From: a virus
Lineage: Duplodnaviria; Caudoviricetes
Length of the DNA stretch: 64,000 nucleotides
Strand: one strand, 5' to 3'
Virus record (IMG/VR): IMGVR_UViG_3300028832_000112
Coordinates: 1-64,000 of that record
Part shown: piece after piece, positions 20,711-24,200 of the stretch
Layout of the letters: every line of letters begins with the position of its first letter
Position numbering within the stretch: position 1 is the first letter of the stretch
Translations under genes and position numbers: made by a program
The notes under the pieces: model-generated
Seen by the model: the letters and a program-made list of their open reading frames with translations, nothing else
Database searches by the model: none
Told to the model about the DNA's origin: nothing

Positions 20711-21013
20711 TTAGTCCTCGCATTGTTCTTTGTAGGTAATAACGGAATCCATGGGGAAGGAGACGACGTCGTGCGCATTGTTCTTGTGCATGATGACGAT
20801 GCGGTCAGCGCCGCCGTCTTGTCCCCTGGACTTTTTCTGATAGCTGTATTGATGTAGGTCGAAGTCCATGCACTTCGGCACGTTGATATTTCCGCTGTCG
20901 CCGACGCACACGGTCAGCTTCCCGGCTTCGCAGTCATCCATGCAGCACTTGAGGAACAAGACCAACATGAGGATGACGACAATGAATATGAGTGTCGGAT
21001 TGGCTTCGTCCAT
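20711..21013 (-). CDS. Membrane-anchored small protein (paralogue of 21016-21336)
   Basis: N-terminal TM; GKLTVCVGD....VPKCMDFDL. Confidence 0.7.
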   Translation of the reverse strand: MDEANPTLIFIVVILMLVLFLKCCMDDCEAGKLTVCVGDSGNINVPKCMDFDLHQYSYQKKSRGQDGGADRIVIMHKNNAHDVVSFPMDSVITYKEQCED

Positions 21014-21015
21014 GA

Positions 21016-21336
21016 TCAGTCCTTGCAGCCAGATTTTGCTGCAGAAATGAGTTGCTTGTTTGGGTAGTTCACTACGTCGGTGGAGACTTCCTTGTTGATG
21101 ACTACCAAGTGGTCGTCGTACCGCTTGTACTTGTATTTATCCAGAGGGAAGTCGTAGCACGTAGGGACGCCGAACTTCTCGGTGTCGCCAACGCATACGG
21201 TGAATTTGCCCTTGACGCAGCTGATTTGTTCTTCCTTGTTGCTGATCAGCCATTTTGCTCCGAAGAACAGGGCGAGTCCTATCACGATGATGAATAGGAC
21301 TTCCCACCAAGATAATTCGTCTGATGAACTTGCCAT
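21016..21336 (-). CDS. Membrane-anchored small protein (paralogue of 20711-21013)
   Basis: N-terminal TM; GKFTVCVGD....VPTCYDFPL. Confidence 0.7.
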   Translation of the reverse strand: MASSSDELSWWEVLFIIVIGLALFFGAKWLISNKEEQISCVKGKFTVCVGDTEKFGVPTCYDFPLDKYKYKRYDDHLVVINKEVSTDVVNYPNKQLISAAKSGCKD

Positions 21337-21337
21337 G

Positions 21338-22063
21338 TTATTTCTTCTTTCTCGGCATGCACTGGATGGTATAGGTGCCGCCATCGGTGGAACGTGTTTC
21401 CTTGACGACCGTGCCGTCTACGATACCCACGCGGATTTCCTCGCGGAGACGATCCATAGCGCCTTCGGCATGGGAGATTTCGCGGCCACGGAAGCGGATG
21501 TTGAGCTTGACCGGGTGGCCTTCGACGAGGAAGTCGTTAGCTTGCTTGAGGATACGGGCGCGGTCTGCCTTGGACGAGTCTGTCGTGTCGGAAGTGAGCT
21601 TCAGCATCTTTTCTTCGGACGCCTTTGCTGCGGCACGGTTCTTCTTGTCAAGTTCCTTGGCCTTCTTCTTCTGGTCGTAGATGTACTTGCTGAGGTTGCC
21701 GAGCTCTGCGATGGGCGGATCGATGCGGTTGTTGACGGCGATGAGGTCGAGACCTCGTTCGTCGGCCATCTTCTGTGCTTCTGCCGTGGACATCACGCCG
21801 AGAGACTGGCCGTTCTCGTCCTTGAGGCGCACGGAAGCCGCCGTGACTGTGTACTGGGCCTTGGCCTCGTCCATCGGGCTCTTCGGAACGAATCGCTGGC
21901 GCGGCTTGACCGTGTAGATGGGCGGATTTACCTTCTCGTCCACCGCCACCAGATCGAATCCGCGCTTGCGAGCGTACTCCTTGGCCTGTCCGGTGGCCAT
22001 GGAACCGAGATCTTTACCGTTTTCATCCCTCATTTGGAGGAAACTTGCTTGAATGTATGCCAT
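21338..22063 (-). CDS. infC: Translation initiation factor IF-3 homologue with tandem duplicated N-terminal domain
   Basis: Two IF3-N units (DENGKDLGSM...RGFDLVAV....PP and DENGQSLGVM...RGLDLIAV....PP), linker KYIYDQKKKAKE, and C-domain FLVEGHPVKLNIRFRGRE; AAGGAG RBS and ATG start. Confidence 0.9.
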   Translation of the reverse strand: MAYIQASFLQMRDENGKDLGSMATGQAKEYARKRGFDLVAVDEKVNPPIYTVKPRQRFVPKSPMDEAKAQYTVTAASVRLKDENGQSLGVMSTAEAQKMADERGLDLIAVNNRIDPPIAELGNLSKYIYDQKKKAKELDKKNRAAAKASEEKMLKLTSDTTDSSKADRARILKQANDFLVEGHPVKLNIRFRGREISHAEGAMDRLREEIRVGIVDGTVVKETRSTDGGTYTIQCMPRKKK

Positions 22064-22095
22064 TTTTAACTCCTTTTGTTTGTACAATACACCGA

Positions 22096-22124
22096 AATAT
22101 AGTACATTCTAGCCATTTTGGCAA
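22096..22124 (-). promoter_or_regulatory. Sigma70-type early promoter for the IF3 operon
   Basis: TTGCCA-N17-TATATT on the minus strand. Confidence 0.7.
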
Positions 22125-22756: not shown

Positions 22757-22802
22757 ACGGATTCCTTTCTTTCTGCCAATATAGCAAAGATGCCCGGTTT
22801 CG

Positions 22803-24200
22803 TCATACGAGGACGTGCAGTTCCTTCGCGGCTCTCGTGAACGCGGTGTACTTTAGCTTGTTGCGAAGCTCGTGCTCTTGGATTCGGTTGATGTTCCTCT
22901 CGACGACGAACACGTTCTGTATGGTGGAACCCTGCGACTTGTGTGCGGTGAGCGCGTAGATGTAGCCTACCCACATGTAGTAGTGGTTGAGCGCGGCGTA
23001 GTCCTTCCACGCTTCCTTCGGCGTGTAGATCTTGTGGCCGTTCTTGTCTTCCTTCTCAAGTCGTTCCTTGGCCTCTATGGCCAGTTCCTCGCGGAGCTTG
23101 TAGAAGTCTTCGAGGCCGTCCGGACGGATGATGTACGCCGTGGCGTTTGTCTTGCGCTTCTTGCGCTTCACGACGTTCGACACCTCGACCTTGAAGCACT
23201 TGATGTGGTAGCAGGGGTCTTCGACATCCTCGATGGAGTTGATTATCAAGTGCTCCTCGATGTTGTAGATGACGCTGAACATCAGGTTCCTTCCCACATG
23301 CACGTCGTTGCCGTACGTGCGCACTACGCGCACTTCCTCGCCCACTTCGTACATTCGGGTACTGTCTGGATAGATTGCCGCACGGACACGCTCGTTGATG
23401 GCGTCCACAGCCGCGTTGGTGTACGCGACTGCCATCGCGTGGCTGGAGTCGTTCTTGAACTCTTCTGACGTGAAGTACGGCATCATCGTGGACATGAACT
23501 CGCGCTCGAAGTGGTGGAAGTAGATGCCAGTGCCGTCTTCGGAGACCTTCGTGTCGTGAGCGAACAAGTCGACCGGGCTCGTCATGTCCTCGCGCATCTT
23601 GGTGACTACGCCGAGGATTGGGTTCTGGTCTGCAGTGCGCATTACCTTCGTGAGTTCCACCTTCATCGGGAGCTGGAAAATGACGGACTCCATGTAGCCC
23701 TTGTTGGCGTCGTCCACCGGGGGAATCTGGCAGCGGTCGCCGACATAGATCACCTTGATTGCCGTAAAGGTGCGGAGCTGCTTCTGTATCTCGTTCAGTA
23801 ATGCGTTGGACACCATCGAGGCTTCGTCGATGATGACGACCTCGTATTCGCAGAGGTGCGACTCGTGTTCCTTCTTGAGTTTCGGCTTGCCGTCGGAGAA
23901 GTCTAGTAAGACTAGGCCGAGCAGCGAGTAGATGGTCTTGTCGTAGTCTCGTCCGGTCGCTTGCGCGATGACTTCCACTGCCTTGTTCGTAGGCGCGGTA
24001 CACACGCAGCGCGGCATTTCCTCGTTGTCGCCGCTTTCCAGTTCGTCGAGAAGTACGTTGATTAGCGAGGTCTTTCCAGTACCAGCCGCGCCGTACAGAA
24101 CCATCTGCCTACGGTCTGGTGCCTTCAAAAACTTGTGTATGATTTCCAGCGCGTTGAGCTGGTCTTCGTTCAGATCGGATTTCTTTAATCGTTTGGCCAT
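22803..24200 (-). CDS. dda: SF1B DNA helicase, T4 Dda-like
   Basis: GAAGTGKT, TAPTNKA, IIDEASM, VGDRCQIPPV, AYTNAAV, TAHKSQGST and YTAFTRA motifs. Confidence 0.9.
   Translation of the reverse strand: MAKRLKKSDLNEDQLNALEIIHKFLKAPDRRQMVLYGAAGTGKTSLINVLLDELESGDNEEMPRCVCTAPTNKAVEVIAQATGRDYDKTIYSLLGLVLLDFSDGKPKLKKEHESHLCEYEVVIIDEASMVSNALLNEIQKQLRTFTAIKVIYVGDRCQIPPVDDANKGYMESVIFQLPMKVELTKVMRTADQNPILGVVTKMREDMTSPVDLFAHDTKVSEDGTGIYFHHFEREFMSTMMPYFTSEEFKNDSSHAMAVAYTNAAVDAINERVRAAIYPDSTRMYEVGEEVRVVRTYGNDVHVGRNLMFSVIYNIEEHLIINSIEDVEDPCYHIKCFKVEVSNVVKRKKRKTNATAYIIRPDGLEDFYKLREELAIEAKERLEKEDKNGHKIYTPKEAWKDYAALNHYYMWVGYIYALTAHKSQGSTIQNVFVVERNINRIQEHELRNKLKYTAFTRAAKELHVLV

Follow-up and report, generated by a model that had tools for sequence, protein, structure and literature searches.

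The protein encoded at positions 21,338 to 22,063 of the stretch of phage DNA analysed here (64,000 nucleotides, referred to hereafter as the window) is a 241-residue homologue of translation initiation factor IF3, arranged as N1, a short basic linker, N2, a Lys-rich helix and the C-domain. Judged by sequence and by a structural model, residues from about 55 to 241 constitute a complete IF3, in front of which stands an extra N-domain core, N1. The tandem-N layout marks out a family of IF3 proteins from giant, T4-like phages that inhabit the gut of ruminants. We consider it probable that the gene makes an intact, selected IF3 paralogue, with N1 added before a complete IF3, and that the product binds the host 30S subunit through N2 and the C-domain core, with N1 supplying a new contact. 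The coordinates of the features are collected in Table 1.

Table 1. Features of the IF3 locus in the window, and leaderless-type sites in the whole virus record (G000)
Feature	Position	Strand	Evidence
Phage IF3 coding sequence, 241 aa	21338..22063	-	ATG 22063..22061, TAA 21340..21338
N1, extra IF3 N-domain core, residues 3-54	21902..22057	-	Pfam, models, PDB matches, dN/dS
Inter-domain linker, residues 55-71, basic motif RQRFVP(K/R) conserved	21851..21901	-	alignment, model
N2, canonical IF3 N-domain core, residues 72-123	21695..21850	-	Pfam, alignments
Lys-rich linker helix, residues 124-150	21614..21694	-	model, alignment
IF3 C-domain, residues 151-241	21341..21613	-	Pfam, alignments, Foldseek
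-35 hexamer TTGCCA of sigma70-like promoter, within 3' end of upstream gene	22119..22124	-	motif search
-10 hexamer TATATT of IF3 gene promoter	22096..22101	-	motif search
Shine-Dalgarno AAGGAG, 6 nt ahead of IF3 ATG	22070..22075	-	sequence
Small membrane protein gene, 106 aa, downstream of IF3	21016..21336	-	ORF; no Pfam match
Leaderless-type promoter-like site starts (G000)	36339, 69263, 73164, 79026, 84067, 89092, 97180, 103429	+	
Leaderless-type promoter-like site starts (G000)	97194, 73163	-	

When the whole protein was searched against Pfam, IF3_N was matched at 102.1 bits in two stretches and was accompanied by IF3_C. Each part was also recognised in isolation. Residues 1-63 alone scored 36.1 bits against IF3_N (E 7.4e-9, profile positions 5-51 of 70, cut-off 26.9), residues 64-142 alone scored 72.3 bits (profile positions 5-69 of 70) and residues 142-241 alone scored 36.5 bits against IF3_C. 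The C-domain is borderline by sequence, as IF3_C reached 34.1 bits in the full-length scan against a cut-off of 34.8. The original prediction of two IF3 N-domain units ahead of a linker and a C-domain was thus borne out, and the two-plus-one pattern of Pfam matches that it had expected was found, with IF3_C close to its cut-off. A six-frame search of the record likewise gave two IF3_N matches, at 21914-22054 and 21653-21847, and BLASTP aligned N1 with N2 at 36% identity over 56 residues (E 5e-17). The whole protein scored 122.7 bits with the NCBI infC equivalog TIGR00168 (cut-off 60). The phage profile PHROG 9787, 'translation initiation factor', covered residues 64-229 only (E 1.2e-29), so that N1 lies outside it.

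An AlphaFold2 model of the whole protein, built from 25 family members, had a mean pLDDT of 82.8. The strand-strand-helix-strand-strand core of the IF3 N-domain is predicted twice, at residues 8-54 and 77-122, and N2 is followed by a long helix of 25 residues (124-148) and a beta-alpha-beta-alpha-beta-beta C-domain. The linker between N1 and N2 (residues 55-71) had a pLDDT of about 64-67. In Foldseek searches the whole model matched IF3 structures, and the fold of the C-domain fitted 1tig, 6vrj and 2m71. Modelled alone (pLDDT 79.0), N1 had IF3 N-domains as all nine of its best PDB matches, with a TM score of 0.71 to 1tif and about 0.7 to 6o6d. N1 lacks the first part of the linker helix, and the charge gap between N1 (about +1) and N2 (about -3) is small.

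The gene was originally predicted to have its own promoter, a strong ribosome binding site and an ATG start, and all three were located. The promoter-like sequence TTGCCA-N17-TATATT spans 22124..22096 on the minus strand. With one mismatch allowed, this motif occurs seven times in the window, where 0.14 occurrences are expected, and the orthologues in L005 and L010 are preceded by a matching TTG(A/C)CA-N17-T(G)nTATATT motif. The promoter may be 'early', a reading that comes from its host-type consensus. The -10 hexamer is separated from the ATG by 32 nt; with a transcript start predicted about 7 nt past the -10, the leader would measure about 25-32 nt, and it carries the Shine-Dalgarno sequence. 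A second promoter-like site, ATGACG-N17-TG-TATATT, lies at 22778-22806 on the minus strand, before the upstream 215-aa gene, to which no function is assigned. Contigs from two bovine-gut metatranscriptome libraries (X22 record 7, X23 record 14) cover N1 and the IF3 start codon and extend beyond the predicted transcript start, which could reflect read-through from the second site. The contigs do not prove that the gene is transcribed or that the promoter is used, since contigs cannot show 5' ends and these may derive from DNA.

In the E. coli paradigm, infC starts at AUU, represses itself through this start codon and belongs to the infC-rpmI-rplT operon. The phage gene starts with ATG and lies outside any such operon; the genes for L35 and L20 are absent among the genes downstream. 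The AUU start and the operon are typical of the E. coli gene and do not define the IF3 protein family.

The ATG of the downstream 106-aa gene begins 1 nt past the IF3 stop codon (TAA-C-ATG). From this arrangement the two genes are probably co-transcribed and translationally coupled. The 106-aa product and the product of the next gene in the same orientation (20711-21013, minus strand) are paralogous single-pass membrane proteins that share the motif TVCVGD...VP.C.DF; neither of these two small proteins after IF3 had a family match. On the other side of IF3 a Dda-like helicase was found in every relative for which the upstream region could be seen, and PHROG searches gave matches to tail-fibre and NAD-ligase proteins. 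Two further observations concern the region after IF3 in other contigs. In a near-identical phage, IF3 is directly followed by a gene for a 403-aa TnpB (OrfB_IS605 / Cas12f1-like; L001:4930-6141) that is missing at the corresponding site in the window, an insertion polymorphism between near-identical phages. In one relative's contig of 49.9 kb (L007:5196-8720), IF3 is followed by the bacterial housekeeping genes UppS, DUF6089, RadA and a POTRA-like gene; this phage-bacterial junction may point to the host or may be a chimera made in assembly.

The virus record from which the window was taken, G000, is 105,680 bp long and 26% complete by CheckV. Near-identical and related IF3 proteins were found on contigs of 392-468 kb, and the stretch occurs in sequencing runs of gut metagenomes from cattle or other animals. 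A related complete genome of 419 kb (G002) encodes a T4-type major capsid protein and an IF3 with a single N-domain, and the genome of a further relative with a tandem IF3 (G001) contains an IF1 gene as well.

A homologue search that covered 5.8 billion proteins returned about 50 protein clusters at 64-100% identity and full coverage, mostly of 239-243 residues, together with remoter tandem-N members of the family at 42-53% identity. All members begin with MA(Y/F)I, slightly extended in some cases, and N1 is retained down to 37-42% identity within N1. In codon comparisons with two close relatives, dN/dS for N1 was 0.066 (dS 0.65) and 0.19 (dS 0.53); the values for N2 in the same two comparisons were higher (0.21 and 0.29). 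Met64, the internal start that the original prediction had named (PMDEAK) as the one that would yield a normal IF3, is kept only in relatives at least 77% identical and is replaced by N, Q, A or R, or is missing, in the others. The low dN/dS of N1, the conserved MA(Y/F)I start and the non-conserved Met64 together indicate that N1 is translated and is under purifying selection.

These results bear on two other readings of N1. Translation might begin mainly at Met64, to give an ordinary IF3 of 178 residues, or at both sites, to give long and short isoforms in the manner of IF2 alpha and beta. We regard this as quite unlikely. A weak GAAGAG-like purine run does precede Met64, the residue is conserved among the closest relatives, and residues 64-241 alone amount to a complete IF3, much of which the PHROG profile covers; however, the first ATG has the strong AAGGAG, the rest of the family lacks the internal Met, the N-terminus is conserved, and a short product alone leaves the conservation of N1 unexplained. 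The internal start is therefore largely excluded by the non-conservation of Met64 and the strong selection on N1, although a minor extra isoform may be made from it in the sub-clade at least 77% identical. It is hardly credible that N1 is a functionless leftover of a recent duplication. Such a leftover might be expected to lack the linker helix and the arginines that contact tRNA, as N1 does, and relatives with a single N-domain exist, but the retention of N1 at 37-42% identity and its dN/dS of 0.07-0.19 largely refute this reading, and in close relatives N1 is the more conserved of the two N-domains. A translated, selected N1 in front of a complete IF3 remains our preferred reading.

In the N-domain of bacterial IF3, R25 (invariant), Q33 and R66 contact the elbow of the initiator tRNA and tune fidelity (PMC9723500). 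Equivalents of E. coli residues were read from HMMER alignments. In N2, R79 corresponds to R25 and is invariant in the family, S87 corresponds to Q33, and position 120, corresponding to R66, is E in this protein, whereas most relatives have K or R there. In N1 the places of R25, Q33 and R66 are taken by Q10 (variable), D18 and T51, respectively. Since N1 has lost the equivalents of R25 and R66, it is unlikely to be a second reader of the tRNA elbow, and the second tRNA-contacting domain implied by the original prediction is not supported.

The linker helix retains Y129, the equivalent of the E. coli fidelity residue Y75, which is invariant in the family. The residues by which the C-domain of E. 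coli IF3 binds the 30S subunit are R99, R112, R116, R129, R131, R133, Y107 and K110. The RFRGRE core is kept in the phage protein, with R190, R192 and R194 equivalent to R129, R131 and R133, whereas the loop and helix that open the C-domain have been remodelled into a conserved, family-specific signature, LTSDTTDSSKADR. In this region T157, R168, I171, K173 and D177 replace R99, Y107, K110, R112 and R116 of E. coli. In work of Petrelli from 2003 and De Bellis from 1992, R99, Y107, K110 and R116 reportedly contribute to 30S binding; as the phage C-domain has no equivalents of these four, its binding to 30S may be altered or weak.

Relatives with a single N-domain are present in related rumen giant phages (P0052 at L010, P0127, P0133, and L012-L014 of G002). 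They share the KKNRAAAKA linker, the DT..SS..DR loop and the GHPVK motif with the tandem family, and P0052 is flanked by a helicase neighbourhood and a promoter type like those of the tandem-IF3 loci. The N-domain of the single-N proteins combines features that the tandem proteins divide between N1 and N2: those of P0127 and P0133 have YI.S, G.AK and PPVY as in N1, and VRL and MLGD as in N2. In a tree of the shared region from N2 to the C-domain, the single-N forms diverge ahead of the tandem clade (weak support). Both the mosaic domains and the early branching fit an origin of N1 by intragenic duplication in the phage lineage, after which the features would have been divided between the copies. 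N1 may have been lost in some lines. P0052 might be such a deletion, although the tree weakly favours a gain of N1 after the single-N forms had branched off. The mosaic N-domain of P0133 and P0127 could be the ancestral state or the result of repeat collapse by recombination. Since some phages of this group have an IF3 with only one N-domain, N1 is not indispensable.

If the preferred reading is right, the phage IF3 would bind the host 30S subunit through N2 and the conserved core of the C-domain, and would compete with or replace host IF3 during infection. N1, having lost the elbow arginines and the linker helix, would probably not serve as an additional sensor of tRNA. Held on a flexible basic linker, it could instead supply a new contact, with the 30S platform, the mRNA-exit side or a partner protein, and this contact might alter the residence time of the factor or the strictness with which start sites are checked. 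By starting at ATG and not at AUU, the gene would escape self-repression of the IF3 type. Plausible beneficiaries would be the mRNAs of the phage itself, a good many of which appear to lack leaders.

IF3 has been reported to antagonise leaderless initiation (PMC9031893; PMC9723500). At 10 of the 23 promoter-like sites of the form TTGaCA-N17-TATATT in G000, an ATG that opens an ORF lies exactly 6-7 nt after the -10 hexamer, so that the mRNAs are predicted to be leaderless. In the single-N phage G002, whose promoters are of the same type, such 6-7 nt starts number 6 of 75, and the tandem-IF3 phage G001 gave a weak leaderless-type signal only, in a comparison of three phages with one genome per state and with G000 a 26% fragment. 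The co-occurrence of a tandem IF3 with leaderless-type starts is no more than suggestive of a link between them.

A stronger form of this idea is that N1 has been neofunctionalised, so that the phage factor, on host 30S subunits from which host IF3 has been displaced, relaxes or redirects the checking of start sites, for example by tolerating or favouring leaderless phage transcripts. We hold this to be rather unlikely; if true, the virus would encode a switch of initiation mode that arose when a single domain of a universal factor was doubled. It is also unlikely, in our estimate, that the protein serves in host shut-off as a decoy that takes up the place of IF3 on 30S, or captures free host IF3 partners, and thereby blocks host initiation. 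The remodelled beginning of the C-domain (first loop and helix), where several basic and aromatic positions of E. coli are replaced, would suit a decoy, as would an N1 devoid of tRNA-elbow residues, an N2 that carries E120, and a host-type, presumably early, promoter. Nevertheless, the RFRGRE core, the linker helix and the equivalents of Y75 and R25 are conserved as in a working IF3, the phage must initiate on the same ribosomes, and the IF1 carried by a relative better fits a supportive role. We therefore favour a working initiation factor with a new N1 contact over a blocking one.

IF3 is universal among bacteria, and its two-domain plan hardly varies. The role of its N-domain is debated, as the C-domain alone can sustain E. 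coli (PMC9723500). A conserved second N-domain that has lost the tRNA contacts is a natural test of the functions open to the N-domain fold on the ribosome. The tandem-N IF3 is also a concrete candidate for the takeover of initiation by giant phages, for which only general proposals have been made so far (PMC7162821), and the leaderless-type starts in the same genome make for a specific, testable hypothesis.

The rarity of the layout was assessed in several collections. IF3 is carried by 41 of 50,697 deposited phage genomes, and among the matches listed all align from query residue 50-84 onward, indicating one N-domain in each of them. A scan of IMG/VR gave five loci, one of them tandem (L011). 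An N-domain-only profile, designed so that proteins with two N-domains rank first, was run against 1.84 billion representative proteins and the best 150 were examined; seven had two IF3_N stretches and five of the seven came from this phage family, a count that weaker tandem-N proteins below the best 150 escape. The other two are singletons with no apparent relation to the phage proteins. P0137 (249 aa, L016) is a bacterial infC paralogue with a canonical C-domain (107 bits) and a first N-domain that keeps the Arg; it is cellular, unlike the phage family, and is an independent case of the N-N-C order. At its locus (L016:5358-6750) the 249-aa two-N infC and a normal 198-aa infC are adjacent, between rpsF-ssb-rpsR and rpmI-rplT. 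P0233 (185 aa, L017 and L018) has two IF3_N domains and no C-domain and sits on a mobile element; its gene (L017:1976-2533) adjoins an FRG-domain gene and a phage-type integrase. No fused or longer IF3 form was found among proteins of 423-2000 aa, a weak negative. The original prediction had called the architecture novel. This stands insofar as we found no paper describing a duplicated IF3 N-domain and no such protein among the deposited phage matches listed, but the layout is family-wide in these phages and at least two cases occur elsewhere.

The presence of IF3 in phages is already known, and the N-N-C layout is rare, not unique. IF3 genes have been reported for huge phages (PMC7162821), and IF3 is annotated in Serratia phage BF, the Erwinia pEa_SNUABM phages, Vibrio phage 2.275.O and Xanthomonas XaC1. 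These other jumbo-phage proteins (PHROG 9787) likewise belong to very large genomes with other translation-related genes; they differ in having a single N-domain among the matches listed. Mitochondrial IF3 (6neq, 6rw4; PMC6352543) also joins an IF3 core to lineage-specific additions, in a system rich in leaderless messages, with weak similarity in sequence and fold; as its extensions are not duplicated N-domains, the likeness is one of analogy only. Identity to cellular IF3 is 29-37%, with matches scattered over phyla, and no host lineage could be recognised from these cellular relatives. A further comparison is with bacterial InfC (PF05198 + PF00707; 1tif, 1tig, 5lmn-5lmv, 8jsg), with which residues 64-241 share the basic tail, the R25-type Arg, the Lys-rich helix with Y75 and the RFRGRE C-domain, and from which the phage protein is set apart by its extra N core, ATG start, lack of an rpmI-rplT operon and remodelled start of the C-domain.
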